From a virus (lineage: Duplodnaviria; Heunggongvirae; Uroviricota; Caudoviricetes): DNA of 19,309 bases. Every line of letters starts with the position of its first letter. Position 1 is the first letter of the stretch. Shown here piece after piece: positions 1 to 19,309 of this stretch. The notes below the pieces were generated by a model, which was not told the origin of the DNA, did not search any database, and saw nothing but the letters and a program-made list of their open reading frames with translations. The stretch covers positions 1 through 19,309 of the IMG/VR virus record IMGVR_UViG_2690315742_000008, one strand, 5' to 3'. The translations under genes were made by a program, and so were the position numbers.

Positions 1-201
1 TTACCCATTGGCGCGGCTTAAGAGCTTATTTTTGAATTCACAGTGGTCACGATATAACCATCTTGCTCGCCCGTGGATAACTTTGGCTTTTGGCAGGTCG
101 CCGGACTTAATCCGGTCGTAGATGAAGGTTTTACCGAAGCCAGTATCGGCCATGATGAATTTCAAATCAACCAGTGAATCAGGTTGTAGTTCGTGTTGCA
201 T
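1..201 (-). CDS. Excisionase / AlpA-family phage DNA-binding protein (Xis-like), 66 aa; its stop codon is the first 3 nt of the window, so integrase is expected just left of the window
   Basis: Complete minus-strand ORF with ATG at 199-201 and SD GGAGAT 7 nt upstream. Small basic protein with an AlpA/Xis-like pattern (…FIYDRIKSGDLPKAKVIHGRARWLYRDHCEF). Position at the far left of the early-left operon. Confidence 0.55.
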   Translation of the reverse strand: MQHELQPDSLVDLKFIMADTGFGKTFIYDRIKSGDLPKAKVIHGRARWLYRDHCEFKNKLLSRANG

Positions 202-243
202 GAGTGCTATCTCCGAATAGGGAATCGAACCTGCAAATCAGGC

Positions 244-266
244 AATAAAAAACCGCCATCAGGCGG
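244..266 (-). terminator. Candidate intrinsic terminator (minus strand): CCGCC-TGAT-GGCGG stem-loop followed by TTTTTTATT
   Basis: Read directly on the minus strand; the hairpin overlaps the stop codon of the 259..426 gene. Short 5-bp GC stem. Confidence 0.45.
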
Positions 267-426
267 CTTGGTGTTCTTTCAGTTCTTCAATACAAATATT
301 GGTTACGTCTGCATGTGCTATCTGCACCCATAGCATCCAGTGGTCATAGCAGTCGTTGATGTTCTCTGCTTCGATAACTCTGTTGAATGGTTCTCCATTC
401 CATTCACCTGTGACTCGGAAGTGCAT
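259..426 (-). CDS. Small hypothetical early-left protein, 55 aa (MHFRVTGEWNGEPFNRVIEAENINDCYDHWMLWVQIAHADVTNICIEELKEHQAA)
   Basis: ORF below the 60-aa track cutoff, found by hand. ATG at 424-426 with GGAG 7 nt upstream, TGA at 259-261, terminator immediately after. Confidence 0.5.
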   Translation of the reverse strand: MHFRVTGEWNGEPFNRVIEAENINDCYDHWMLWVQIAHADVTNICIEELKEHQAA

Positions 427-439
427 TTATCATCTCCAT

Positions 440-464
440 AAAACAAAACTCGCCGTAGCGAGTT
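440..464 (-). terminator. Candidate intrinsic terminator (minus strand): AACTCGC-TACG-GCGAGTT followed by TTGTTTT
   Basis: 7-bp perfect stem with tetraloop and T-rich tail on the minus strand, between the 28-aa ORF and the 55-aa gene. Confidence 0.5.
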
Positions 465-527
465 CAGATAAAAGAAATCCCCGTCAGTGCGAGGATTGTT
501 AGTTGCGCTCTGCTGCTTCCTTGGTCA

Positions 528-614
528 TTACCATATCCACCAAACTTCACCAGACATGATTCTCGCAATCACTATCATCACCAAAGTGATAATCACAACT
601 TTAACTGGCGGCAT
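528..614 (-). CDS. Possible 28-aa hydrophobic peptide (MPPVKVVIITLVMIVIARIMSGEVWWIW), start overlapping the stop of the upstream gene (TGATG)
   Basis: Hand-found ORF; ATG shares one base with the TGA of the 614..1468 gene. Single predicted transmembrane-like stretch. No independent support. Confidence 0.3.
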   Translation of the reverse strand: MPPVKVVIITLVMIVIARIMSGEVWWIW

Positions 615-1468
615 CATTCACCATCCTGCTCCGGCGGTTCAGGAATCGCCATCCATCTGATTACATCGCAATTACGTAGGCCGATGTCATCTCCAAGCCA
701 TCCTTGACCTTCAGACCAGCATTGCACGTAATACCCGTCTGCGGCGTCAACTACGCACCACTGCGCGTCGTCCGGCATTCGCTCACTACAGCTTATCCAG
801 CCATCCGGAGTTACCGGATAGTTGCCCGATAGCGCATTACGCAATCGCTCCAGATTCACGTATTCCTGAACCCTGTTTCCGTCGCATGCCTGAAGCCATT
901 GCGCAGCCTTTTGCGCATCAGTGTGAAAGGCACAAGTGCGACCGTCATCAAATTGCATTTCGTAGAGGTCAGCAACTTGTTCAAACTGCGTATGTTGTGA
1001 CTTGTAAGTTTGGCTTACAGGTTCGGCACCATGAAGCATGGCGTCGCTCCGCTCTATGCCATCCAGCGCGATTCGCAGTGCCTGAATTGTGGTAGAGCTA
1101 TCGTTTGGGGCTATTCCATATCGCTCGAATACAGCTAAATGGTTGCGCATAATCTCAGGCGTAAGCTCTTTGTAAGCATAAGCAAGAGGCTCTGATGCAT
1201 TATCCGGCACAACCGACGCAGGCGCGGCAGCATAAACAGGAATAACGTCCGATTGATCTTTATTGCTTTCATCCGTCAAAGCCCAGAATAATTTTCCGGC
1301 CGGATGTTTGAAAATATAAGCAACTGGCTCTGCTTCCAGTGATGCCAGTGCAATTCGTGCCAGTTCCCTAAGATTTTCGCTATATGGTGAAGTATTATCA
1401 CGATGGATTATGTGGTTAGCTGTATCTATGAGAATTTGCTTTTGTTCTTCTCTGTTCATAGTGGTCAT
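614..1468 (-). CDS. DUF551-domain phage protein, 284 aa
   Basis: C-terminal PDGW…W…ERMPDD…W segment is typical of DUF551 proteins found in lambdoid early-left regions. ATG at 1466-1468 with AGGAG 6 nt upstream. Confidence 0.65.
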   Translation of the reverse strand: MTTMNREEQKQILIDTANHIIHRDNTSPYSENLRELARIALASLEAEPVAYIFKHPAGKLFWALTDESNKDQSDVIPVYAAAPASVVPDNASEPLAYAYKELTPEIMRNHLAVFERYGIAPNDSSTTIQALRIALDGIERSDAMLHGAEPVSQTYKSQHTQFEQVADLYEMQFDDGRTCAFHTDAQKAAQWLQACDGNRVQEYVNLERLRNALSGNYPVTPDGWISCSERMPDDAQWCVVDAADGYYVQCWSEGQGWLGDDIGLRNCDVIRWMAIPEPPEQDGE

Positions 1469-1469
1469 C

Positions 1470-2285
1470 TCACTCTCCTTTGATGCGAATGCCAGCGGCG
1501 CGGATTGCAGCGATGACTTCAGAAACTTTGTATGCCATTACCGTTTGGTAATCATCGTGAAAATCTGTTCGATGAAGCATGCTGCTACGTTCTGGGAGCG
1601 ATATTTCCCGAGCATCCAGTTCCTTAACGCGTTCCTCCAGTTCGTAGACCCTGCATTGTTCTCTATCATCAATCAGATATAACCCAAGACATTCGCTTTC
1701 TACCCAACCGCCAAAATCATGATCGTAACGCTCACATGAAAACTCACCGTCACCGTCCTTTGTTGGAATGGTGTAACTATCTAATGGGCCACCATATGTC
1801 GGCACATTTCCCAATGTTGGATGCTCAATCCACATGAAAAATGCACGTCCGGTTATTGGGCAAATATCTGGCCGCCATTGGTCACGAACAGCCTTGGTTT
1901 CGGATAATTCTTCAGCGTGTTGTTTTACTTCCTCAAGCTCAACTCTCAGCTTCCCTACCGTTAGCGCAATATCCTCGTTCTCCTGATCGCGGCGTTTGAT
2001 GTATTGCTGGTTTCTTTCCAGTTCATCCAGTAATGCCAGCACGGTAGCCGGATTGGCTGCGGCGATGAATTCAGCATTGGTCTGCTGTTCCATTTGGAAA
2101 TCTTCATCGAAACCGCTTTCAGGATGCGCTCCTTCAATTCTGCAAATGGGAAGATATCCAACAACTTCACGATGAATTAGCGCATCACCAGCATCAAATC
2201 TCTCCTCTCCATATTCGAGCGACCACACGCCACACGTTGCTTTCTCTGCCTTTTCACGCAGTGCCTGATAGTTAATTTTGGTCAT
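1470..2285 (-). CDS. ea22: Ead/Ea22-like protein, 271 aa
   Basis: N-terminus MTKINYQALREKAEKAT… and the FIAAANPATVLALLDELE segment match the Ea22/Ead family pattern as recalled. ATG 2283-2285 with GGTGA SD; its stop lies 1 nt from the next start. Confidence 0.7.
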   Translation of the reverse strand: MTKINYQALREKAEKATCGVWSLEYGEERFDAGDALIHREVVGYLPICRIEGAHPESGFDEDFQMEQQTNAEFIAAANPATVLALLDELERNQQYIKRRDQENEDIALTVGKLRVELEEVKQHAEELSETKAVRDQWRPDICPITGRAFFMWIEHPTLGNVPTYGGPLDSYTIPTKDGDGEFSCERYDHDFGGWVESECLGLYLIDDREQCRVYELEERVKELDAREISLPERSSMLHRTDFHDDYQTVMAYKVSEVIAAIRAAGIRIKGE

Positions 2286-2286
2286 A

Positions 2287-2586
2287 TCACATCACCCTGA
2301 AGCCGTTGCATTTACGTAAGAAATCGCAGATATAGCCCTTCATTTTTTCATGCCAATCTCGATCATTCCCATTGCACCAACCATCAGGTGGAGTCCAGTT
2401 TTCTATCAGAGCAGCCATTTTCTTTGCTTTCGCCGGAGTAGCTGTTGCGGTATCGCAGTAATGACGAGTGTCAACCAACGCATCCATACCATCGATATCA
2501 AGTACGCAAAACCATGTGTGATTCGGAATTCCTACAGGTGGTATTTGTTGCCCACGTCGACGTTTATCAATAAGATATACACTCAC
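2287..2586 (-). CDS. Hypothetical protein, about 99 aa, probably starting at the GTG at 2584-2586 rather than the track start at 2607
   Basis: The in-frame GTG at 2586 has AAAGGAGG 6 nt upstream and forms a 4-nt GTGA overlap with the stop of the upstream gene. The track start at 2607 is also a GTG but has no SD. Confidence 0.45.
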
Positions 2587-2768
2587 TGGTTGCCTCCTTT
2601 GCGCCACATCGCATTCAGATATTTGTTGTCATTAACAGAACCGAAACTCTTTCTTTTAAGCAATTCCTCTCTCGATGGCATTGGCTTTACGCGTTGGCGA
2701 ATAATCATTTCTGCCGGAAGAATGCCGGGATTGTATGCAAGTCCTCTCATGGAAAATTCCTCAGTCAT
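2583..2768 (-). CDS. Hypothetical protein, 61 aa ([61 protein letters not shown])
   Basis: Start chosen at the ATG that overlaps the TGA of the 2761..3054 gene (ATGACTGA). The track start at 2900 would overlap the upstream gene by 140 nt. Confidence 0.45.
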
Positions 2769-3054
2769 TACTGATAGCGCCATAGCGTGAGCGGTAATTA
2801 CGCAGGCGCGGGTCAATTTCAGGGAAGTGGGTATATGTGGCTTTGCGGAATGGTCGGATTGATGTCTGGTAAATTCGCTCGCGTTCTTCTTTCTCTGCAA
2901 GCCATATACAATGGCGAAATTCCTTTTCCTCTTTCGTTTCCTGCGGTAGCGACATTATCCTGTCGTAGTTTTTCCTGAATTTATCCAGCACCTCCGATAC
3001 GGAATTGCCGGAACAGCGGCGCGCGTCGTCCGCACCATACAGAGGCGCTGGCAT
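2761..3054 (-). CDS. Hypothetical protein, 97 aa
   Basis: ORF with ATG at 3052-3054, in the tight minus-strand gene train. No recognisable motif. Confidence 0.45.
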
Positions 3055-3077
3055 AATGGGAGCCTTATTTTCAGTAA

Positions 3078-3665
3078 TCAGAAAGGAGGGTAATCGTTCT
3101 GGCTGTAACCATAATCATCTGCATGATTCTGGCTTACGTTTTTAGAGCGATTGTCTTTATCTTTGAGGCTGGCAACCATGTTGGCGATAGTTTCTGGTTG
3201 CTTGCCTTCCGCCTTTTCTTTAAGGGTTTGACCTGTTTTTGCAATAAACGGGATGCGTATTTCCATCTGGTAGCTGTCTGCGCCAGTCTTTTTGTTTGTG
3301 GTTAATACTTTCTGGAGCACTAACCCGATTTTCTTTCCATGAAATTCAGGAGCAACAAATTTACTGGCGGAAACCATATGTTGCGTTAATTGTCCAATCC
3401 CGGCACACCCCATCATGGCGTGGACGACATTTGCGCCAAATTTATTTTCCGTTCCGTCATTTTTCTGAACACAGACGCTAAGATATTGGATTTTACGTCC
3501 GTCGTCGGATTCGCCAGAAAACTCAATAAATTTGGCTCCTTTTTCTGATTGCTTTAGTTCTGCTTCAGTAATGGTAATGATATGAGCGCCAGTTTCGTTA
3601 ATAAAACCACCTTGCCCTGCGGTCAGTGCTGCTTCTTCGTTATAAGTAAAAATCACGTTGCTCAT
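3078..3665 (-). CDS. SSB-like (DUF669-like) protein, 195 aa, partner of the upstream Sak4-like ATPase; C-terminus ends in an acidic/aromatic …DDYGYSQNDYPPF tail resembling the SSB C-terminal tip
   Basis: 4-nt ATGA overlap with the Sak4-like gene. The Sak4 plus DUF669 pairing is a recurrent phage arrangement (recalled). C-terminal PF tip read directly. Confidence 0.6.
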   Translation of the reverse strand: MSNVIFTYNEEAALTAGQGGFINETGAHIITITEAELKQSEKGAKFIEFSGESDDGRKIQYLSVCVQKNDGTENKFGANVVHAMMGCAGIGQLTQHMVSASKFVAPEFHGKKIGLVLQKVLTTNKKTGADSYQMEIRIPFIAKTGQTLKEKAEGKQPETIANMVASLKDKDNRSKNVSQNHADDYGYSQNDYPPF

Positions 3666-4342
3666 GCGGCGTTTTCCTTAATTTGATGAACATTATTGAT
3701 GCCGTAGTAATCACAAACAGTGGCATCGACGAAAGAGAGATCGTTATCAATCTCATTGGAGTCAAACATTCCCATTGGGGATTTAACAGTGTCTGCACCG
3801 TTGTTTTTTGTGGTGAAAAAGAACTGGTCATCACGGGTAAGGGTGCGAAGAACTATAGTAAACATGCCTTCGACAGTGATTTTCTCGTCCAGCATTTTGC
3901 CGATAGTTTTCATTTTCACGCGCCCTATAGGGGTTTCTTCGGTGTGTGCAAGAAAATAGACTCTCAGGTCATCAGGTGCATCCTGTGCAGCCTTAATCAC
4001 CTCCCATGCGTGGCGGCCTATCTCAGTAAATTTATCAAACGATTTTTCTTCTGAGCGGCGCATAAACTCATTGCTCATCACATACTGGAAGTCATCAACA
4101 ATAACGATTCTTTTCCCGTATTCGTGAGCACGCTTAATTACGGCAACTATTACGTCCCATTTGTCAGTGGTAACTACGGTTCCTTTTTTTGCTCTGGCAT
4201 CCCATGCAAGCCAGTCTTTTGATTTAAATGGTAGCGGCTTGCCTATTGGTTTTATAAGTATTGCTTCCTCTGGATTGATATTTCTCATGCTGGTTGATTT
4301 TCCGGTGCCAGACTCACCGAGTATTAATGTCGCAGTTCCCAT
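3662..4342 (-). CDS. Sak4-like RecA-fold ATPase (phage recombination / single-strand annealing ATPase), 226 aa
   Basis: Walker A GESGTGKST near the N-terminus and Walker B RIVIVDD read directly. Size and position (where lambda carries bet/exo) fit Sak4. GAGGTG SD. Confidence 0.7.
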   Translation of the reverse strand: MGTATLILGESGTGKSTSMRNINPEEAILIKPIGKPLPFKSKDWLAWDARAKKGTVVTTDKWDVIVAVIKRAHEYGKRIVIVDDFQYVMSNEFMRRSEEKSFDKFTEIGRHAWEVIKAAQDAPDDLRVYFLAHTEETPIGRVKMKTIGKMLDEKITVEGMFTIVLRTLTRDDQFFFTTKNNGADTVKSPMGMFDSNEIDNDLSFVDATVCDYYGINNVHQIKENAA

Positions 4343-4350
4343 AATTCACC

Positions 4351-4539
4351 TCAGAATGGTAATTCGGATGGGGCGGAAAGAAATTCGCGCTCATTCATGC
4401 GCTCTCTTTGTGCCTGCCATAAGCAAAGTTGTTTCTTTGATTTATCTCCCGCTTTACGCCAGTAACGAGCCTCAGCAATGTGATACTCTCTTTTTAATCG
4501 GCTTAACTCTGGGGTTTTCGCCAGTTCTACCGGAATCAT
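4351..4539 (-). CDS. Hypothetical protein, 62 aa (MIPVELAKTPELSRLKREYHIAEARYWRKAGDKSKKQLCLWQAQRERMNEREFLSAPSELPF)
   Basis: Start re-picked to the second ATG (4537-4539), which has GGAGG 5 nt upstream and an ATGA overlap with the kil-like stop; the track start at 4551 has no SD. Confidence 0.5.
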   Translation of the reverse strand: MIPVELAKTPELSRLKREYHIAEARYWRKAGDKSKKQLCLWQAQRERMNEREFLSAPSELPF

Positions 4540-4649
4540 TTTGACCTCCATTTTCTGTAGGCTTCGATGGCCTCACGAAACATCTTTTCATCGCCAATAA
4601 AAGTGGCGATAGTGAATTTAGTCTGGATAGCCATAAGTGTTTTATCCAT
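4536..4649 (-). CDS. kil: Kil-like host cell-division inhibitor, 37 aa (MDKTLMAIQTKFTIATFIGDEKMFREAIEAYRKWRSK)
   Basis: Closely resembles the lambda Kil N-terminus as recalled; overlaps the cIII stop as in lambda. Shorter than lambda Kil (47 aa, recalled). Confidence 0.65.
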   Translation of the reverse strand: MDKTLMAIQTKFTIATFIGDEKMFREAIEAYRKWRSK

Positions 4650-4782
4650 TTTTGGGAACTCCTGGCTGATTAAGTACGTCGATGAGTCGTTTCCATCCGT
4701 CACGTAATTTACGGGTGATTCGTTCAAGTAAAGATTCGGAAGGGCAGCCAGCAACAGGCCACCCTGCAATGGCATATTGCAT
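4642..4782 (-). CDS. cIII: CIII (FtsH/HflB inhibitor that stabilises CII), 46 aa
   Basis: MQYAIAGWPVAGCPSESLLERITRKLRDGWKRLIDVLNQPGVPKNG matches lambda CIII residues 1-46 almost exactly (recalled). AAGGAG SD 6 nt upstream of the ATG at 4780-4782. The track ORF is over-extended upstream. Confidence 0.85.
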   Translation of the reverse strand: MQYAIAGWPVAGCPSESLLERITRKLRDGWKRLIDVLNQPGVPKNG

Positions 4783-4842
4783 GGTGTGCTCCTTATTTAT
4801 ACATAACGAAAAACGCCTCGAGTGAAGCGTTATTGGTATGCA

Positions 4843-4869
4843 TATAAAAAGGCCCTCACACTGGAGGGC
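4843..4869 (-). terminator. Intrinsic terminator (minus strand): GCCCTC-CAGTGT-GAGGGC followed by CTTTTTAT
   Basis: 6-bp GC-rich stem plus T-run read directly. Lies between ral and cIII, where lambda has tL terminators that N overrides. Confidence 0.6.
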
Positions 4870-5005
4870 AAAGAAGATTTCCAATAATCAGAACAAGTCG
4901 GCTCCTGTTTAGTTACGAGCGACATTGCTCCGTGTATTCACTCGTTGGAATGAATACACAGTGCAGTGTTTATTCTGTTGTTTATGCCAAAAATAAAGGC
5001 CACCA

Positions 5006-5206
5006 TTAGGCAGCCTTGTTGTTCAGTTCACCAAGTTCTCTGGCAATCATTGCCGTCGTTCGTATTGCCCATTTATCGACATATTTCCCATCTTCCATTA
5101 CAGGGAACATTTCTTCAGGCTTAACCATGCATTCCGATTGCAGCTTGCATCCATTGCATCGTTTGAATTGTCCACACCATTGATTTTTATCAATAGTCGT
5201 AGTCAT
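5006..5206 (-). CDS. ral: Ral-like restriction-alleviation protein, 66 aa, four Cys (C11, C17, C20, C26)
   Basis: MTTTIDKNQWCGQFKRCNGCKLQSEC… matches lambda Ral as recalled (66 aa). Lies immediately downstream of N as in lambda. Confidence 0.65.
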   Translation of the reverse strand: MTTTIDKNQWCGQFKRCNGCKLQSECMVKPEEMFPVMEDGKYVDKWAIRTTAMIARELGELNNKAA

Positions 5207-5276
5207 AAGGATAGTCCTGGTATTGTTCCATCACATCCTGAGGATGCTCTTCGAACTCTTCAAATTCTTCTTCCAT
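5190..5276 (-). CDS. Small acidic 28-aa ORF (MEEEFEEFEEHPQDVMEQYQDYPYDYDY), lambda orf28-like by position and length
   Basis: Hand-found. ATG at 5274-5276 with GAGGTGA SD inside the 3' end of N; overlaps the ral start by 17 nt. Confidence 0.35.
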   Translation of the reverse strand: MEEEFEEFEEHPQDVMEQYQDYPYDYDY

Positions 5277-5284
5277 ATCTCACC

Positions 5285-5584
5285 TCAAATAAGTGGTTTG
5301 CTGCCTAATTTCATTTTCTGGCGACCAACACAAGTCACACCCATTTCACTGCGTGGCTTGCGGTAGTAAATACGGTTCTGTTTACGCTCGACTTCTTCTG
5401 CCTTCTTGCAGCAAAGGCTTCCTAGTGATGCTGCTTTGTCTGCTCTGACGCAACCAGAGAGCTTTAGCGCAATTTTTCGCGCCAGTCGCTGCTCTTGCAT
5501 TGCCTGTTCACGTTGAGCCTGTCTGCGTGCTCTGCGGCGATTTCTGGCGTTATCGTCAGCCAGATATGTAATGACTACTGTCAT
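5285..5584 (-). CDS. N: N-like transcription antiterminator, 99 aa
   Basis: N-terminal arginine-rich motif (NARNRRRARRQAQREQ) and a C-terminus …RKQNRIYYRKPRSEMGVTCVGRQKMKLGSKPLI matching the lambda N C-terminus (recalled). GGAGG 5 nt upstream of ATG 5582-5584; nutL upstream. Confidence 0.8.
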   Translation of the reverse strand: MTVVITYLADDNARNRRRARRQAQREQAMQEQRLARKIALKLSGCVRADKAASLGSLCCKKAEEVERKQNRIYYRKPRSEMGVTCVGRQKMKLGSKPLI

Positions 5585-5691
5585 GTTGACCTCCGATGAT
5601 TGACTTTGGCGGTGACGCGCCGGGTGCTTATCTTCCGGTTGCCGTCGTGCAGCTGCACTTCACATCACCCCAAAGCCAACTACTCTTTGGT

Positions 5692-5732
5692 TCCCGCATT
5701 TCGGCGGGACAATCCCATCAATGTTAAAGAGC
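5692..5732 (-). promoter_or_regulatory. nutL: boxA-like GCTCTTTAACA (5721-5732) followed on the leftward transcript by boxB hairpin TCCCGC-CGAAAT-GCGGGA (5692-5709)
   Basis: The boxB hairpin is identical to the one at nutR (8682-8699) and boxA matches the rrn-type boxA consensus. Read directly on the minus strand. Confidence 0.7.
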
Positions 5733-5778
5733 CTGCCAATCTGTTCCGTTTGGCTACCAGCGTCCTGCTGATGGCTTA

Positions 5779-5807
5779 AAGATAACTTAGGTTATAGGCA
5801 CGGTCAA
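5779..5807 (-). promoter_or_regulatory. Candidate pL: -35 TTGACC (5807..5802), 17-nt spacer, -10 TATCTT (5784..5779), minus strand
   Basis: Hexamers read on the minus strand. Overlapped by operator sites OL1 and OL2; about 190 nt upstream of the N start with nutL in the leader. Confidence 0.45.
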
Positions 5808-5864
5808 TAACCTAATTTATATTTTGTGGTAAATAAGTTATAAGTGATGGATAACAAAGGTATT
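5782..5864. promoter_or_regulatory. OL operator cluster: ATAAC-N4-GTTAT sites at 5782-5795 (perfect), 5807-5820 and 5851-5864 (one mismatch each)
   Basis: Same 14-bp inverted-repeat motif as the three OR sites between cI and cro; seen directly. Confidence 0.6.
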
Positions 5865-5980
5865 TTATTTTTGTAAATGTTGCTGATTGATTGGTGTTTG
5901 AGGGCTTGCGTGCGGGTGAAGTTGTTACCTTTGGCTTGATGCTTGTCTATGATGAGGATGGGTGATTGGGTGGCGATCGT

Positions 5981-6011
5981 GAGGCAAAGAAAACCCGGCG
6001 CTGAGGCCGGG
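5981..6011 (-). terminator. Intrinsic terminator (minus strand) just downstream of the cargo cassette: CCCGGC-CTCAGC-GCCGGG followed by TTTTCTTT
   Basis: 6-bp GC stem plus T-run, 8 nt after the stop of the 6019..6951 gene. Analogous in position to lambda tImm downstream of rexB. Confidence 0.65.
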
Positions 6012-6018
6012 TGAGATA

Positions 6019-6951
6019 TTAAAGAACCGATTTAACAAGATGGTTTTTACGGTACAGACCTATGCGATCATTGTGAATCTCAGTAGTCTCCACTAAAAGA
6101 GAAACAATCTGTCCGACCTTGTGTTTTTTTTGTATTAAATCTAGCATTTCAATCGGATAGGAAGCCTTTAAATGTTCACCACCAACATCAAGCTCCAGCT
6201 TCCCATATTTGGATAGAACGACCAGTTCGCCTGTAACCGTTTCAGTAATGGGAGGGGATGAAATGGTTGATGTAAGTCTACTCACCAAGTACTTAATTTT
6301 ATTGGAGTCAATAGTTGCCACCTTGGTGCCATTACTAAATGGACCGGTCCAACTTGCATCAAATGTTAAGTTGTGTTTATCGCATTCCTCTACGATTCTC
6401 TTAAGGCTTACAGTGGAATTGTATCCAATTTCAGCGACGTGATTCATGAAGTTGTTGTCGTCATCGCTTAACAACAAATCGAATATGCCTTTTACAGCCT
6501 TGCTGGGTACTGTTTCTACTAATTCTGCTATTCCTGTAGAGAAGGTGACGCCCAATTTTGTAGACCCAGGGGATAAATCAGCCAGCCTGAGGTTTAAGGA
6601 GCTTTTCACGTCGTAGGGAACTTTTTTTGAGTCCTTGCCTGAGGCAATTTTGTGTGTTGCTCTTTGTATTAGCGCTGCAAGATTTGTTGAAATAGCCCCA
6701 AGCAGCTCTAAAGGAATAGAGCCAAAGTCAACCTCAGAGCCTTTCAGCCGCAGCTCAAAAAAATCGATAAGTGGGTGCCGACTATCTTGCTTTAATTTTT
6801 CGGCCTTCAAATCGCTCAGATGAGAATCCATGGAGCGATAAAGAAGCATGTCAGCAAAGGACCTGGTTTTGTTTTGCTTCATTGCATCGACTTCTTTTTG
6901 AATGAAATCAATGCGTTTATCGCAATTTTTAAACATTGATTTATCATTCAT
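6019..6951 (-). CDS. Hypothetical protein B of the cI-proximal cargo cassette, 310 aa, no recognisable motif
   Basis: ATG 6949-6951 overlaps the stop of gene A (ATGA) and has GAGGA 7 nt upstream. AT-rich by eye compared with the flanking N and cI genes. Terminator immediately downstream. Confidence 0.6.
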   Translation of the reverse strand: MNDKSMFKNCDKRIDFIQKEVDAMKQNKTRSFADMLLYRSMDSHLSDLKAEKLKQDSRHPLIDFFELRLKGSEVDFGSIPLELLGAISTNLAALIQRATHKIASGKDSKKVPYDVKSSLNLRLADLSPGSTKLGVTFSTGIAELVETVPSKAVKGIFDLLLSDDDNNFMNHVAEIGYNSTVSLKRIVEECDKHNLTFDASWTGPFSNGTKVATIDSNKIKYLVSRLTSTISSPPITETVTGELVVLSKYGKLELDVGGEHLKASYPIEMLDLIQKKHKVGQIVSLLVETTEIHNDRIGLYRKNHLVKSVL

Positions 6952-13622: not shown

Positions 13623-14146
13623 CTATCAAATCAAATACGCCAGCGTCAGATAGGTATCGGCTTATTGAGGATTATCTGTATTTAGACGGAGATACAGTCA
13701 GGTACAAAAAGGACTCGCTAAAACACCCCAACCACAGCCACCGGGCCGGAGATGAAATTAAAACATCGATAAATGGATCTGGGTATAGACAGGTGTGTTT
13801 TGCAGGCATTCAGATGTTTGTTCACGTAGTTGTTTTTGCGCTGCACAACAAAAGAATGCCATTGAAAAATATTGACCATATTAACGGAAACAGGCTGGAC
13901 AATTCCCCAAAAAATCTTAGGGAGGCAAGCCGGATAGCAAACAGCCGAAATCAGAAAACTAAGTGCAATAGCCGTTCTGGAATAAAAAATGTTTTATGGA
14001 ACAAGCAAAAAAATAAATGGGCCGTTCAAGTGCGCACAGATTTTGGCCGGTTGCATTTTGGGTTCTATGAAGATCTTGAGCTTGCTGGTTTGGTTGCCAG
14101 TGAGGCTATCAACAAATATCACGGACAATATGCGAGGGTTGAATGA
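13619..14146 (+). CDS. Second, divergent HNH-AP2 homing endonuclease, about 175 aa from ATG 13619 (ATGA overlap with ninB stop)
   Basis: HNH motif IDHINGNRLDNSPKNLREASRIANSRN and AP2-like …WNKQKNKWAVQVRTDFGRLHFGFYEDLELAGLVASEAINKYHG. The track start at 13559 lies inside ninB. Confidence 0.7.
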   Translation: MTIKSNTPASDRYRLIEDYLYLDGDTVRYKKDSLKHPNHSHRAGDEIKTSINGSGYRQVCFAGIQMFVHVVVFALHNKRMPLKNIDHINGNRLDNSPKNLREASRIANSRNQKTKCNSRSGIKNVLWNKQKNKWAVQVRTDFGRLHFGFYEDLELAGLVASEAINKYHGQYARVE

Positions 14147-14673
14147 TTAAGCATAAATCAGAAACACCAAAAGAAGTTAGAGACTGCTGGCAAACGCCGC
14201 TTTGGCTTTTTGATGCACTGGATATTGAGTTTGGATTCTGGCTGGATTCGGCAGCGAGCGACAAAAATGCTCTGTGTGCTCACTGGCTAACTGAGGCCGA
14301 CGACGCGCTCAATTCTGAGTGGGTAAGCCACGGTGCAATCTGGAATAACCCACCGTACAGCAATATCAGGCCGTGGGTGGAAAAAGCCGCTGAGCAGTGC
14401 ATACAACAGCGACAGGCGGTAGTGATGCTTGTGCCAGAAGATATGTCTGTCGGCTGGTTCAGCAAGGCTCTGGAGAGCGTTGACGAAGTTCGCATTATCA
14501 CTGATGGACGGATTAATTTTATCGAACCATCGACAGGGCTGGAGAAGAAGGGAAACAGCAAAGGCTCCATGCTGCTGATTTGGCGACCGTTCATCAGTCC
14601 TCGACGGATGTTTACTACCGTATCCAAAGCGGCATTGATGGCGATCGGGCAGGGCGTCAGGAGGGCGGCATGA
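14143..14673 (+). CDS. Phage Dam-type DNA N6-adenine methyltransferase, 176 aa
   Basis: NPPY catalytic motif ([10 protein letters not shown]); size and nin-region position are typical of lambdoid phage Dam-like methylases. ATGA overlaps on both sides. Confidence 0.7.
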
Positions 14674-14846
14674 GGCGACAGCGACGAAGTTTCACCGACA
14701 TCATCTGCGAAAACTGCAAATACCTTCCAACGAAACGCTCCAGAAATAAACGCAAGCCAATCCCAAAAGAATCTGACGTAAAAACCTTCAACTACACGGC
14801 TCACCTGTGGGATATCCGGTGGCTAAGACATCGTGCGAGGAAATGA
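14670..14846 (+). CDS. ninE: NinE, 58 aa
   Basis: [58 protein letters not shown] resembles lambda NinE (recalled). AGGAGG SD; ATGA overlap with the methylase stop. Confidence 0.75.
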
Positions 14847-15208
14847 CAATGGATTATTCACAGTTAAGTGATTTTGAAATTAACGTGGCGGTATTCGAAG
14901 CCATTCATAACGGATCACCGGATTACAAAGAAGGTGAGAATGGCGATATGGTGTTTGTCTCATTTGAGGGAGACATTGTAAACGGAGACGCAGTTGAAGT
15001 AGAAGTTGAGCGCGGATCCTTTAACCCATGCGCAAACCCAGCAGACGCATGGCCGATTATTGAAAAATACAGGATTAGCATTATCAATCTCGATGAAGAC
15101 GAGTGGGGTGCACGCGGTGTGGCCTACTGTAAATCTAAGCGAGCTATACATGAAAATCCCCTCCGCGCCGCCATGATTGTCTTTCTCATGATGCAGAGAA
15201 TCCAATAA
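14843..15208 (+). CDS. Hypothetical nin-region protein, 121 aa, NinX-like by position (between ninE and ninF)
   Basis: Start re-picked to ATG 14843, which overlaps the ninE stop (ATGA); the track start at 14807 lies inside ninE. Function unknown. Confidence 0.45.
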
Positions 15209-15387
15209 TGCTTAGCCCATCCCAATCTCTTCAATACCAGAAAGAAAGCGTCGAGCGGGCTTTAACGTGCGCTAACTGCGGTCAGAAGCTGCATGTTCTG
15301 GAAGTTCACGTGTGCTCCGATTGCTGCGCAGAACTGATGAGCGATCCGAATAGCTCAATGTACGAGGAAGAAGACGATGGTGATTAG
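15208..15387 (+). CDS. ninF: NinF, 59 aa ([59 protein letters not shown])
   Basis: Hand-found (below track cutoff). Matches lambda NinF as recalled. The ATG shares one base with the preceding TAA. Confidence 0.75.
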   Translation: MLSPSQSLQYQKESVERALTCANCGQKLHVLEVHVCSDCCAELMSDPNSSMYEEEDDGD

Positions 15388-15712
15388 CCGATACGGACAA
15401 ATAACGTTTAAACATTTTCAAGACAATCCAACATGGGCTGCTGCGGCTGGATATGACTTTAATTATTTTGATTGTCTGTCAGTCGCATGTATAGCAACTA
15501 CCAATGTTGCTAACAACATAATCGATGAATTCTTGGATTTTCCAGACTATCAGGTCAGAGAGTTGCCTGCATTTTTTGTGAAAGTATCTGTTGCTACAGC
15601 TCTGTTATTTATTTTGTTATTCGCATATCCATTGCTTGCCGTATTTGTTTATGTGAGATGCAAACACTCACAAAAGAAATACAGCGGAGAGCATACCGAT
15701 ATTACCAGCTAA
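15377..15712 (+). CDS. Hypothetical protein, 111 aa, with a C-terminal hydrophobic helix (…FFVKVSVATALLFILLFAYPLLAVFVYV…), at the position lambda uses for ninG
   Basis: ORF overlaps the ninF 3' end. Looks AT-rich by eye. No recognisable motif beyond the transmembrane-like segment. Confidence 0.4.
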   Translation: MVISRYGQITFKHFQDNPTWAAAAGYDFNYFDCLSVACIATTNVANNIIDEFLDFPDYQVRELPAFFVKVSVATALLFILLFAYPLLAVFVYVRCKHSQKKYSGEHTDITS

Positions 15713-15761
15713 AATATGCGTGTGTGGTTGAGGAGATGCCAAGAGAAATGGGGGAGACGTC

Positions 15762-16052
15762 ATGGCTAACCTACGCAAAGAAGCGCGCGGCAGAGAATGC
15801 CAGGTACGTATTTACGGCGTATGCAATGGCAACCCTGAAACTACAGTTCTGGCACATTACCGGATGGCTGGAATTTGCGGAACTGGAATGAAGCCTGACG
15901 ACCTGATCGGCGCATGGGCTTGTAGCGCGTGTCACGATGAAATCGACCGACGCACCCATAACCTCGACAACAAAGACGCCAGACTTTACCACCTCGAAGG
16001 CGTGATCAGAACGCAGGCGATACTGCTGAAGGAGGGGAAGATTAAGTCATGA
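15762..16052 (+). CDS. ybcO: YbcO-like (DUF1364) putative Zn-dependent nuclease, 96 aa
   Basis: Cys/His-rich (C-x-V…C-N-G…C-S-A-C-H-D-E); lies immediately upstream of rusA as in the DLP12-type arrangement (recalled). GGGGGAG SD. Confidence 0.6.
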   Translation: MANLRKEARGRECQVRIYGVCNGNPETTVLAHYRMAGICGTGMKPDDLIGAWACSACHDEIDRRTHNLDNKDARLYHLEGVIRTQAILLKEGKIKS

Positions 16053-16444
16053 AAACCTACCGAATAAAATTGCCGTGGCCTCCTTCAAACAACCGATATT
16101 GGCGACACTCAAGAGGGATCCACTACATCAGCGACTGGGGGAAGAGATACCGAAAAGAAGTAATCGAAATAATACAGCAACAACAGCTAGACATCAAAAT
16201 CACACCTCGCATCAGAATAACCATCCACGCAGCACCTCCCGATAACCGCAAACGAGATTTGGACAATCTGCCCAAAGCCGTTTTTGACGCACTCACCAGT
16301 GCGGGCTTCTGGCTGGATGACGGTCAGATAGACGATATGCGCATCAAGCGCTATCAGGCGATTAAAGGTGGAATGCTTGTGTTGGTTGTGACTGAAACAT
16401 GCGGGAGTTTGCCAATGATTACAGAGCTACTGGAGGCCGCATGA
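16049..16444 (+). CDS. rusA: RusA Holliday-junction resolvase, 131 aa
   Basis: …LPWPPSNNRYWRH…RDLDNLPKAVFDALTSAGFWLDDGQI… matches the RusA family pattern (recalled E. coli RusA). ATGA overlap with the ybcO-like stop. Confidence 0.8.
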   Translation: MKTYRIKLPWPPSNNRYWRHSRGIHYISDWGKRYRKEVIEIIQQQQLDIKITPRIRITIHAAPPDNRKRDLDNLPKAVFDALTSAGFWLDDGQIDDMRIKRYQAIKGGMLVLVVTETCGSLPMITELLEAA

Positions 16445-16647
16445 CGTTCTCAGTAAAAACCATTCCAGACATGCTCGTTGAAGCATACGGAAACCAGACA
16501 GAAGTAGCACGCAGGCTGAAATGTAGTCGCGGCACGGTAAGAAAATACGTTGATGATAAAGACGGGAAAATGCACGCCATCGTCAACGACGTTCTCATGG
16601 TTCATCGCGGATGGAGTGAAAGAGATGCGCTATTACGAAAGAATTGA
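16441..16647 (+). CDS. ninH: NinH, 68 aa
   Basis: [68 protein letters not shown] matches lambda NinH (recalled). GGAGG SD; the track start at 16399 lies inside rusA. Confidence 0.85.
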
Positions 16648-17296
16648 TGGCAGCAAATACCGAAATATTTTGGTAGCTGGCGACCTGCACGGATGCTACA
16701 CGAACCTGATGAACAAACTGGATACGATTGGATTCGACACCAAAAAAGACCTGCTTATCTCGGTTGGCGATTTGGTTGATCGCGGTACAGAGAACGTCGA
16801 ATGTATGGAATTAATCACATTCCCCTGGTTCAGAGCTGTACGTGGAAACCATGAGCAAATGATGATTGATGGCTTATCAGAGCGTGGAAACGTTAATCAC
16901 TGGCTGCTTAATGGCGGTGGCTGGTTCTTTAATCTCGATTACGACAAAGAAACTCTGGCTAAAGCTCTTGCCCATAAAGCAGAAGAACTTCCGTTAATCA
17001 TCGAACTGGTGAGCAAAGATAAAAAATATGTCATCTGCCACGCCGATTATCCTTGTGACGAATACGAGTTTGGAAAGCCAGTTGATCATCAGCAGGTAAT
17101 CTGGAACCGCGAACGAATCAGCAACTCACAAGACGGGATCGTGAAAGAAATCAAAGGCGCGGACATGTTCATCTTTGGTCATACGCCAGCAGTGAAACCA
17201 CTCAAGTTTGCCAACCAGATGTATATCGATACCGGCGCAGTGTTCTGCGGAAACCTCACATTGATTCAGGTACAGGGAGAAGGCGCGTGGGCATAA
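16625..17296 (+). CDS. ninI: NinI / lambda Ser-Thr protein phosphatase (calcineurin-like metallophosphatase), 223 aa
   Basis: [32 protein letters not shown]…GDLVDRG…RGNHE… matches lambda PPase (recalled) and carries the GDxHG / GDxxDRG / GNHE metallophosphatase motifs. The track start at 16550 is over-extended. Confidence 0.85.
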
Positions 17297-17805
17297 GAGA
17301 ACTAAACCTCACCAAAGAGCAGCACGAGTGGCTGAATGGCTGGCTTGAACTGTGGGGCGCATGGGTTTATTCAGGTCGTCTGGAAAAGCGCATGAGCAGC
17401 GTAATAGCTAAGTTCATGGAGAGCGTAGAGCCGGGAAGAGTTATGACAAGGCCAATGTGTAATGATGATGATGGAATGTTGATTTCTCAGGTCGTCGATT
17501 CCGTCATGTACATTGACAAGAAAGCCTTTGGCATCCTCCTCAGCTACTACGCTCATGGTTCATCTAAGCGAGCAATTGCATCCTACTATCACGCGACTGC
17601 AAAGCCACGCAAGATGTGTGGACGTGGTGGCGAGGGATGGAGAAAACCTTCACTGGCAACCTGTAGAAACGAAATTGACGACATCCTGAAAGCGTCATTA
17701 TTTGTTTTGTATCAACCAATGCAAAATGCTTTCAAAATGCGTAAACGTGTTGAGAAAGTTAAGCATGTTGCTGTTAAAAGCCTTGACATGCAATTAGCCA
17801 TTTAG
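17287..17805 (+). CDS. Q: Late-gene antiterminator Q, non-lambda type, 172 aa with an apparent GTG start
   Basis: Last gene before the S holin, where Q sits in lambdoid phages. Not similar to lambda Q as recalled; W…WGAW and RPMCNDDDG segments resemble the phage 82 / 933W Q type (recalled weakly). Confidence 0.6.
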
Positions 17806-17812
17806 CCATAAT
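17783..17812 (+). promoter_or_regulatory. Candidate late promoter pR': -35 TTGACA (17783-17788), 18-nt spacer, -10 CATAAT (17807-17812), overlapping the end of Q
   Basis: Hexamers read directly. The placement relative to the downstream hairpin is uncertain. Confidence 0.3.
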
Positions 17813-17822
17813 TATAGGGTAA

Positions 17823-17867
17823 GCTGCCGTTAGTGACTCTTAAGTTGCAACGGTGGCTTTTTTGTTT
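17823..17867 (+). terminator. Hairpin (9-bp stem with two G-U pairs, 17-nt loop) followed by TTTTTTGTTT; candidate tR'-like terminator or pause structure
   Basis: GCTGCCGTT…AACGGTGGC pairing followed by a T-run, read directly. The loop is unusually long. Confidence 0.4.
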
Positions 17868-17941
17868 GCACAACAGGTAAGAGCATTGAACCCGCAGACC
17901 TCGCGGAATTGGTGAAAGGTGCCGCGCAGTGCTCTTATCGT

Positions 17942-18072
17942 TGTGGTGAAGCTCAATGGCGAGCTAGCAGATAGGCGACAGTGCAAATACTAGTCATGTA
18001 GCTGACCGCCGCGCGTACTGCAATCGGCAGCGCACCGATGGAAGCCGGTTCGATTCCGGCCGCCACAACCCA
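17942..18072 (+). other. tRNA-like element: perfect T-arm GCCGG-TTCGATT-CCGGC (18044-18060) with acceptor-like and D-arm-like pairing partners, but about 130 nt overall and no clean anticodon arm
   Basis: T-arm read directly. TGTGGTG (17942-17948) pairs with CGCCACA (18061-18067); GCTC-AATGGC-GAGC (17951-17964) is D-arm-like. Too long for a canonical tRNA; the best anticodon-loop candidate has no U33. Confidence 0.25.
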
Positions 18073-18158
18073 AACTGAGCCGTAGCCACTGGCTGTCCTG
18101 AATTCATTAGTAATAGTTACGCTGCGGCCTTTTACACATGACCTTCGTGAAAGCGGGT

Positions 18159-18194
18159 GGCAGGAGGTCGCGCTAACAACCTCCTGCCGTTTTG
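18159..18194 (+). terminator. Strong hairpin GGCAGGAGG-(12-nt loop)-CCTCCTGCC followed by GTTTTG, about 120 nt upstream of S
   Basis: 9-bp perfect GC-rich stem read directly. Could be a terminator that Q-modified polymerase reads through. Confidence 0.45.
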
Positions 18195-18313
18195 CCCGTG
18201 CATATCGGTCACGAACAAATCTGATTACTAAACACAGTAGCCTGGATTTGTTCTATCAGTAATCGACCTTATTCCTAATTAAATAGAGCAAATCCCCTTA
18301 TTGGGGGTAAGAC

Positions 18314-18637
18314 ATGAAGATGCCAGAAAAAAATGACCTGTTAGCCGCCATTCTCGCGGCAAAGGAACAAGGCATCGGGGCAATCCTTGCGTTTGCAATG
18401 GCGTACCTTCGCGGCAGATATAATGGCGGTGCGTTTACAAAAACAGTAATCGACGCAACGATGTGCGCCATTATCGCCTGGTTCATTCGTGATCTTCTCG
18501 ACCTCGCCGGACTAAGTAGCAATCTCGCTTATATAACGAGCGTGTTCATCGGCTACATCGGTACTGACTCGATTGGTTCGCTTATCAAACGCTTCGCTGC
18601 TAAAAAAGCCGGAGTAGAAGATGGTGGAAATCAATAA
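18314..18637 (+). CDS. S: S holin / antiholin (dual-start MKM…), 107 aa
   Basis: [63 protein letters not shown]… matches lambda S (recalled). The upstream CCCC-TTATT-GGGG hairpin resembles the lambda sdi structure. Confidence 0.9.
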
Positions 18638-19097
18638 TCAACGTAAGGCGTTCCTCGATATGCTGGCGTGGTCGGAGGGAACTGATAACGGACGGCAGAA
18701 AACCAGAAATCATGGTTATGACGTCATTGTAGGTGGAGAGCTATTCACTGATTACTCTGATCACCCTCGCAAACTTGTCACGCTAAACCCAAAACTCAAA
18801 TCAACAGCAGCCGGACGTTACCAGCTTCTTTCCCGTTGGTGGGATGCCTATCGTAAGCAACTTGGCCTGAAAGATTTCTCTCCGAAAAGTCAGGACGCTG
18901 TGGCATTGCAGCAGATTAAAGAGCGTGGCGCTTTACCGATGATTGATCGCGGTGATATCCGTCAGGCAATCGACCGTTGCAGCAATATCTGGGCTTCGTT
19001 GCCGGGGGCTGGTTATGGTCAGTTCGAGCATAAGGCTGACAGCCTGATTGCAAAATTCAAAGAAGCTGGCGGAACGGTAAGAGAGATTGAGGCATGA
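18621..19097 (+). CDS. R: R endolysin (lambda-type lytic transglycosylase), 158 aa
   Basis: [51 protein letters not shown]… matches lambda R (recalled). Overlaps the S 3' end as in lambda. Confidence 0.9.
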
Positions 19098-19309
19098 GCA
19101 GAGTAACCGCGATTATCTCCGCTCTGATTATCTGCATCATCGTCTGCCTGTCGTGGGCTGTTAATCATTACCGTGATAACGCCATGACCTACAAAGAGCA
19201 GCGCGATAAAGCCACATCCATCATCGCTGATATGCAGAAGCGTCAACGTGATGTTGCTGCGCTCGATGCAAAGTACTCGAGAGAATTAGCCAATGCGCAA
19301 GCTGAAAAT
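19094..19309 (+). CDS. Rz: Rz spanin (inner-membrane subunit), N-terminal 72 codons only; truncated by the window end
   Basis: [72 protein letters not shown]… matches lambda Rz (recalled). ATGA overlap with the R stop. Rz1 would begin just beyond the window. Confidence 0.8.

Follow-up and report, generated by a model that had tools for sequence, protein, structure and literature searches.

In phage lambda, the genes gam, bet, and exo of the Red module are located downstream of cIII and kil. The question is which genes occupy this position in the virus record IMGVR_UViG_2690315742_000008, and what their products do. The window analyzed here is the whole stretch of 19,309 nucleotides (positions 1 to 19,309 of that record); in the slot in question it carries, on the minus strand, the genes for a 226-aa ATPase and a 195-aa partner protein, which an earlier note, based on the letters alone, had taken for a Sak4-like ATPase and a protein resembling SSB, the bacterial protein that binds single-stranded DNA. 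The pair is an HK620-type Sak4 annealase with its cognate SSB, a system already known and experimentally characterized. We give a probability of roughly 0.93 to the reading in which the two genes belong to an HK620-type recombination module (hkaM, sak4, ssb, and abc2) of a mosaic lambdoid Escherichia coli phage or prophage, acting by the four-step mechanism described below. Apart from the idea that the tail of the partner taps into host networks, the hypothesis put forward in the earlier note is already in the literature of 2016 and 2018 (PMC4889955, PMC5928155).

The module was compared with that of phage HK620. Across hkaJ (abc2), hkaK, hkaL, hkaM, kil, and cIII, the DNA of HK620 and the segment 2700-4800 show 98.6% identity. 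Sak4 and HkaL have 224 of their 226 residues in common (the differences being D43E and I139M), the SSB and HkaK 193 of 195 (K143Q and E153V), and none of these substitutions falls within the Walker motifs or the C-terminal tail. Both genes are real rather than chance open reading frames (ORFs), as indicated by the PHROG matches of the two products (1.3e-107 and 3.5e-66); the homologs of these proteins number in the thousands, and near-identical copies are present in 391 phage records.

The first of these matches links the ATPase to phrog_2872, "Sak4-like ssDNA annealing protein", and covers residues 1-220 and profile positions 1-218 of 219. Pfam AAA_24 also matches the protein, at 30.2 bits (cut-off 27 bits). 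The Walker A and Walker B motifs named in the earlier note were both recovered, and the residues G9, S11, G12, G14, and K15 of the former and D83 and D84 of the latter are unchanged across 32 Sak4 homologs. Since the sequence and profile searches of the Protein Data Bank (PDB) returned nothing for either protein, the folds were tested using AlphaFold2 (AF2) models. The Sak4 model, built from the 32 homologs, reached a mean predicted local distance difference test score (pLDDT) of 85.5 and a predicted template modeling score (pTM) of 0.87. In the fold search with this model, the solved Sak4 of phage 52A ranked first, followed by RAD51D (13.3), RecA (13.1), and RAD51C (12.9), and then by XRCC3, KaiC, and RadB. 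Sak4 is accordingly modeled as a RecA/Rad51 core fold lacking the N- and C-terminal accessory domains of RecA.

The second match links the partner, over residues 2-190, to phrog_743, "single strand DNA binding protein". An alignment of 36 homologs (55-86% identity), which also served as the input for the AF2 model, showed a conserved core and a linker varying in both length and sequence. In the model, the core (pLDDT ~90) shows the order of elements beta1-beta2-beta3-alpha-beta4-beta5, with the five strands formed by residues 26-39, 45-53, 58-67, 112-123, and 130-141, and the helix by residues 75-88. The PDB structure search with this model retrieved almost exclusively oligonucleotide/oligosaccharide-binding (OB)-fold proteins binding single-stranded DNA (ssDNA); the nearest solved structure was PrgE of plasmid pCF10, which is not a canonical SSB. 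The absence of an OB fold, which would have spoken against the earlier assignment, was thus not observed, and the modeling supports the view that the partner is an OB-fold, SSB-like protein with a disordered tail.

The C-terminus of the partner reads ...DDYGYSQNDYPPF. Of its last 20 residues, three are acidic, four are aromatic, and none is basic, and the pLDDT of residues 177-195 is below 50, as expected for disorder. The SSB-type tail described in the earlier note, which ends in NDYPPF, is therefore present, and its terminal Phe, F195, is nearly invariant (conserved in at least 90% of the aligned sequences). The type of tip differs within the HK620-type SSB family: PF is the ending of 64 of the 117 full-length homologs, DF that of 18, and QF that of 12. 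The tip of the homolog P0117 is DDDIPF and that of P0105 is DDQGIPF, and the Xenorhabdus prophage relatives P0107 and P0108 end in ...DFDDDIPF, which is exactly the tip of E. coli SSB.

Both HK620 proteins have been purified by Hutinet et al. (2018, Front Microbiol 9:743; PMC5928155). HkaL (Sak4) is monomeric, consists of the RecA core only, and needs ATP for binding and annealing ssDNA, and HkaK (the SSB) elutes as a tetramer of ~95 kDa and binds ssDNA with an affinity ~4-fold below that of E. coli SSB (PMC5928155). RecA-mediated annealing is blocked by HkaK, as it is by E. coli SSB, and oligonucleotide recombineering by Sak4, which is 15-fold above background, reaches ~210-fold when ssb is co-expressed, an activity that requires neither hkaM nor abc2 (PMC5928155). 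These authors likened NDYPPF to the DDDIPF of E. coli and deleted the six residues. With the resulting delta-6 SSB, recombineering was 10-fold lower, the stimulation of annealing in vitro turned into inhibition, the ATP-dependent Sak4/SSB/ssDNA supershift was lost, and Sak4 no longer bound SSB-coated ssDNA (PMC5928155). The experiments suggested in the earlier note, recombineering with the pair and deletion of the PF tail, had therefore already been published, and they showed that the tail is required for the recruitment and stimulation of Sak4. The partner that has been demonstrated for this tail is the Sak4 of the phage itself (PMC5928155). By analogy with these 99% identical proteins, the Sak4 analyzed here can be expected to bind and anneal ssDNA in an ATP-dependent manner, and its SSB to bind ssDNA, form tetramers, and stimulate Sak4 via its tail.

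The features of the left operon are listed in Table 1. The sizes of the two proteins and the overlap between their genes are as previously described, and so is the location of the pair downstream of cIII and kil, in the slot of gam-bet-exo. No homologs of Exo, Beta, or Gam were detected among the main left-operon ORFs scanned, from 614 to 5584, which fell in other families; this is consistent with the replacement of Red by the module.

Table 1. Positions (in the window) and descriptions of the genes and motifs of the left operon.
Feature	Position	Strand	Description
sak4 (hkaL homolog)	3662..4342	minus	226 aa; ATP-dependent single-strand annealing protein, RecA core only (by homology and modeling)
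ssb (hkaK homolog)	3078..3665	minus	195 aa; HK620-type ("DUF669"/"SSB-2") OB-fold ssDNA-binding protein, cognate partner of Sak4
Walker A / P-loop GESGTGKST	4292..4318	minus	Sak4 residues 9-17; read from sequence
Walker B RIVIVDD	4091..4111	minus	Sak4 residues 78-84; read from sequence
Disordered C-terminal tail of SSB	3081..3140	minus	Residues 176-195
NDYPPF, Sak4-recruiting tip	3081..3098	minus	Last six SSB residues; delta-6 phenotype reported in PMC5928155
ATGA stop/start overlap sak4-ssb	3662..3665	minus	Read from sequence
hkaM	4351..4539	minus	62 aa; orphan, first gene of the module; phrog_1723 3.3e-33
abc2	2761..3054	minus	Anti-RecBCD / RecBCD-hijacking; Pfam Anti-RecBCD_p2 5.6e-63, phrog_656 7.7e-55; last gene of the module
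kil	4536..4649	minus	
cIII	4642..4782	minus	
ral	5006..5206	minus	
N	5285..5584	minus	

At the junction between the two genes, the sak4 stop codon TGA (3662-3664) shares bases with the ssb start codon ATG (3663-3665), giving ATGA, and the start of ssb is preceded by the ribosome-binding site AAGGAAAA. This overlap implies that the translation of the two partners would be coupled, and the coupling might set the ratio between the two proteins. An ATGA overlap also occurs at the junction between kil and hkaM, and the ribosome-binding site GAGGTGA, 8 nt before the ATG of sak4, contains the hkaM stop codon. No sigma-70-like promoter was found in the promoter scan of 2600..5800, which fits the read-through of the module from pL. 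Terminator-like matches occurred inside coding sequence.

The two genes flanking the pair call for some comments. The earlier note had left the small gene in the gam position unassigned: the gene is indeed there, and it corresponds to hkaM of HK620, which is an orphan that matches phrog_1723 and for which no Pfam or NCBIfam match was obtained. The PHROG label of this family is "recombinase", without any supporting evidence. The hkaM product also ends in -PF (...APSELPF), and all 80 of its relatives in IMG/VR are at least 97% identical. The abc2 gene, which belongs to the same recombination module, had been left out of the earlier note.

The module was found in 391 phage records, many of which are those of Shiga toxin (Stx)-converting phages, and in 195 of 5,426 complete E. 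coli genomes, where it is always chromosomal; the RefSeq labels of the pair are usually "ATP-binding protein" and "hypothetical" or "DUF669" protein. No phage record covers at least 80% of the window, which is overall a new mosaic of lambdoid early regions. The genes hkaM, sak4, ssb, and abc2 occur together in 63 of the 77 related IMG/VR loci; in the remaining 14, hkaM and abc2 are kept, and sak4 and ssb are missing. At the one locus of the latter kind that was examined (L008, 2698-4788), the space between hkaM and abc2 is taken up by the genes for an annealase resembling Erf (phrog_1097), an SSB of the canonical type (phrog_44), and an exonuclease (phrog_255). The presence of an Erf-type annealase together with an SSB in this slot clearly indicates that the annealase and its SSB are swapped together as a cassette, and that of hkaM upstream of an Erf-type module indicates that hkaM is not specific to Sak4. 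The related loci support the idea that annealase and SSB constitute one functional unit.

The mechanism we propose is as follows. Transcription from pL would run leftward through N, ral, cIII, and kil and then through the module. In the first step, as can be supposed from the Abc2 of P22, the host RecBCD would be modified by Abc2, so that the ends of the phage DNA are resected instead of being destroyed. In the second step, the exposed single strand would be coated by the phage SSB, in the form of an OB-fold tetramer, and the binding to ssDNA would free the disordered C-terminal tail. In the third step, the NDYPPF tip would recruit ATP-bound, monomeric Sak4 to the SSB-coated strand, and in the fourth, Sak4 would pair this strand with a complementary single strand, such as one located at another resected end or at a replication fork. 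The outcome would be a RecA-independent recombination tolerant of sequence divergence. The second to fourth steps have been demonstrated on proteins 99% identical to those encoded here (PMC5928155).

Several points weigh against this reading. The experiments were carried out on the HK620 alleles, and the neutrality of the two substitutions in each protein is an assumption. In solution, Sak4 showed no interaction with SSB-HK620 (PMC5928155), so that the contact between the tail and Sak4 has been deduced from the supershift and not from a structure, and Sak4 would have to displace or bypass the SSB. In addition, no Pfam family, DUF669 and SSB (PF00436) included, matched the partner, even at E values up to 10, nor did any NCBIfam model. 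Judging from these searches, the partner does not belong, by sequence, to the canonical bacterial SSB family (PF00436).

As regards the name DUF669, Kazlauskas et al. (2016; PMC4889955) predicted that the proteins so called are SSBs with an OB fold that have diverged strongly and whose C-terminal tails are acidic. HkaK is identified with Pfam DUF669 by Hutinet et al., although the partner gave no match in the 2025 copy of Pfam-A, and the profile check proposed in the earlier note was negative in this respect. Many of the SSB homologs are called "DUF669 domain-containing protein" by NCBI, and none of the 120 listed has an entry in the precomputed Pfam field, which suggests that the label comes from another resource or from an older model.

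Whether the tail also serves other purposes is a question raised by these data. The NDYPPF tip might, besides recruiting Sak4, dock the host proteins that read the DDDIPF of E. coli SSB (for example RecO, PriA, ExoI, RecQ, or the chi subunit), as the earlier note had envisaged. The pattern D...PF is common to both tips, the tip of the relatives P0107 and P0108 is exactly that of the host, and SSB tails are seen as determinants of the host specificity of single-strand annealing proteins. SSB-HK620 also replaces E. coli SSB, less efficiently, in the stimulation of RecA strand exchange in vitro (PMC5928155), but this stimulation needs no contacts with the tail. No host partner is known, and NDYPPF is less acidic than the host tip. 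Among close relatives, variation of the tip is confined to the residue preceding the F (PPF, PAF, and PSF) and, in a single case, to the second residue (NNYPPF), and this restricted variation fits a tuning to the phage partner; the conservation of the tail can be explained by the phage-encoded Sak4 alone. Docking of host proteins is therefore a tentative proposal, which we find possible but rather doubtful. If it proved to be true, the phage SSB would capture these host proteins, or compete for them, and redirect host replication and repair factors to the phage ssDNA, and HK620-type phages would rewire the host SSB interactome during infection.

The RecA/Rad51 core fold raises the possibility that Sak4 might act in vivo as a filament-forming strand-exchange recombinase of the RecA/Rad51 kind, the SSB supplying the missing second DNA-binding site. 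Phage 52A Sak4 forms filaments in the cryo-EM complex 8rc5, and when a recA host was used for conjugation, the number of crossover recombinants was 20-fold higher with Sak4 and SSB (PMC5928155). The frequency of these crossovers was nevertheless 500-fold below that obtained with RecA, HK620 Sak4 is monomeric in solution, and it neither carried out strand exchange in vitro with either SSB nor had any effect on RecA (PMC5928155), all of which makes this activity unlikely.

Another possibility is that the SSB might be mainly the replication SSB of the phage, its stimulation of Sak4 being secondary. Lambdoid phages normally replicate with the host SSB, the ssb gene is coupled to sak4 in the recombination module instead of being located in the O/helicase region (9232..12443), and sister phages swap their SSB along with the annealase. 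Up to 80% of sak4 genes adjoin an ssb (PMC5928155). DUF669 proteins have been proposed to be replication SSBs in viruses with no known SSB, and the related N4 SSB works in replication (Kazlauskas et al., 2016; PMC4889955). Taken together, these data make a primarily replicative role quite improbable. Lastly, the idea that the ATPase might be an unrelated P-loop NTPase (an AAA_22-type or a defence-associated one, for example) and its partner not a DNA-binding protein, which could be based on weak matches confined to the P-loop (Pfam AAA_22, 3.9e-6; PADLOC mad8, 2.3e-5) and on the RefSeq names "ATP-binding protein" and "hypothetical protein", is already refuted by the full-length PHROG Sak4 match, by the fold search, which puts the solved Sak4 and RecA-family proteins first, and by the biochemically characterized proteins 99% identical to the pair. 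The PADLOC scans of Sak4 and the SSB gave only weak matches of this P-loop kind, and a role in a defence system was accordingly rejected.

Some other genes in the window are worth mentioning. Between N and cI, in the position of rexAB, two overlapping ORFs with a GC content of ~0.40 are present on the minus strand: 6948..7427 (159 aa) matches PADLOC PDC-M63 subunit A (1.1e-41) and Pfam DUF6932 (1.8e-24), and 6019..6951 (310 aa) matches PDC-M63 subunit B (7.5e-45) and has no Pfam match. The region 6019..7427 is probably a prophage-encoded defence cassette of the candidate system PDC-M63. After gene O, the plus-strand gene at 10050..12443 encodes a 797-aa DnaB-type replicative helicase, in which residues 3-95 match the DnaB N domain and the DnaB_C domain is present as two stretches, between which Hint and LAGLIDADG homing-endonuclease signatures occur (approximately residues 209-456); this helicase looks like an intein carrier. 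Just after it, in a patch of low GC content (~0.40), 12522..13133 (plus strand, 203 aa) encodes a homing-endonuclease-like protein with HNH_3 and AP2 domains.

The present finding mainly improves the annotation: for the pair labeled only vaguely in RefSeq, the names Sak4 annealase and cognate SSB can be used, both in the 195 complete genomes of E. coli and in many phages of the Stx-converting kind. The divergence-tolerant, RecA-independent recombination carried out by the module underlies the mosaicism of lambdoid phages, including Shiga-toxin phages, and the module provides a usable recombineering pair. Whether the tail of the phage SSB also engages the partners of the host SSB is the question it raises.

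Compared with the known systems, the module is closest to that of HK620, in which the gene order (kil, hkaM, sak4, ssb, abc2), the Walker motifs, and the NDYPPF tip are the same; the differences consist of two conservative substitutions per protein and of the surrounding phage, which is here another mosaic with a different immunity region, the PDC-M63 cassette, and the DnaB-type helicase bearing the apparent intein. The Gam-Beta-Exo module of lambda and the Arf-Erf-Abc1-Abc2 module of P22 occupy the same slot in the pL operon, downstream of cIII-kil, and share the same task, namely RecA-independent annealing recombination combined with the control of RecBCD. Lambda Beta and P22 Erf are Rad52-like ring formers, whereas the annealase here is an ATP-dependent protein with a RecA core, and in contrast to both modules, the present one brings its own SSB and has no dedicated exonuclease. 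The abc2 gene is common to P22 and the present module: RecBCD is hijacked by Abc2 here, whereas it is blocked by Gam in lambda. The Sak4 of the staphylococcal phage 52A (PDB 8rc5, a complex with Stl2) is only 13% identical to the present one and was missed by the PDB sequence search; it forms filaments, unlike HK620 Sak4.

The SSB shares with E. coli SSB (PF00436) the OB fold, the tetrameric state, the disordered linker, and the acidic/aromatic tip ending in PF, which in both cases recruits a partner only when the protein sits on ssDNA. It differs in that there is no sequence or Pfam match between the two, and in its longer core, with an insert of 44 residues that contains a helix and separates beta3 from beta4, and with extra C-terminal helices; the tip of SSB-HK620 has a phage protein as its proven partner. 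PrgE of the Enterococcus plasmid pCF10 (PDB 8s4s/8s4t) is 12-14% identical to the SSB. The hhalign comparison of the SSB family profile, which is shallow (Neff, the effective number of sequences, 2.1), with PrgE gave no signal (probability 0.7%), so that the resemblance is structural only. PrgE binds ssDNA and double-stranded DNA equally well as a filament, oligomerizes via its N-terminal tail, and is encoded in a conjugation operon. As a minor structural point, the HK620-type phage SSBs and PrgE might belong to a single, hitherto unlinked clade of unusual OB-fold SSBs carried by mobile elements.
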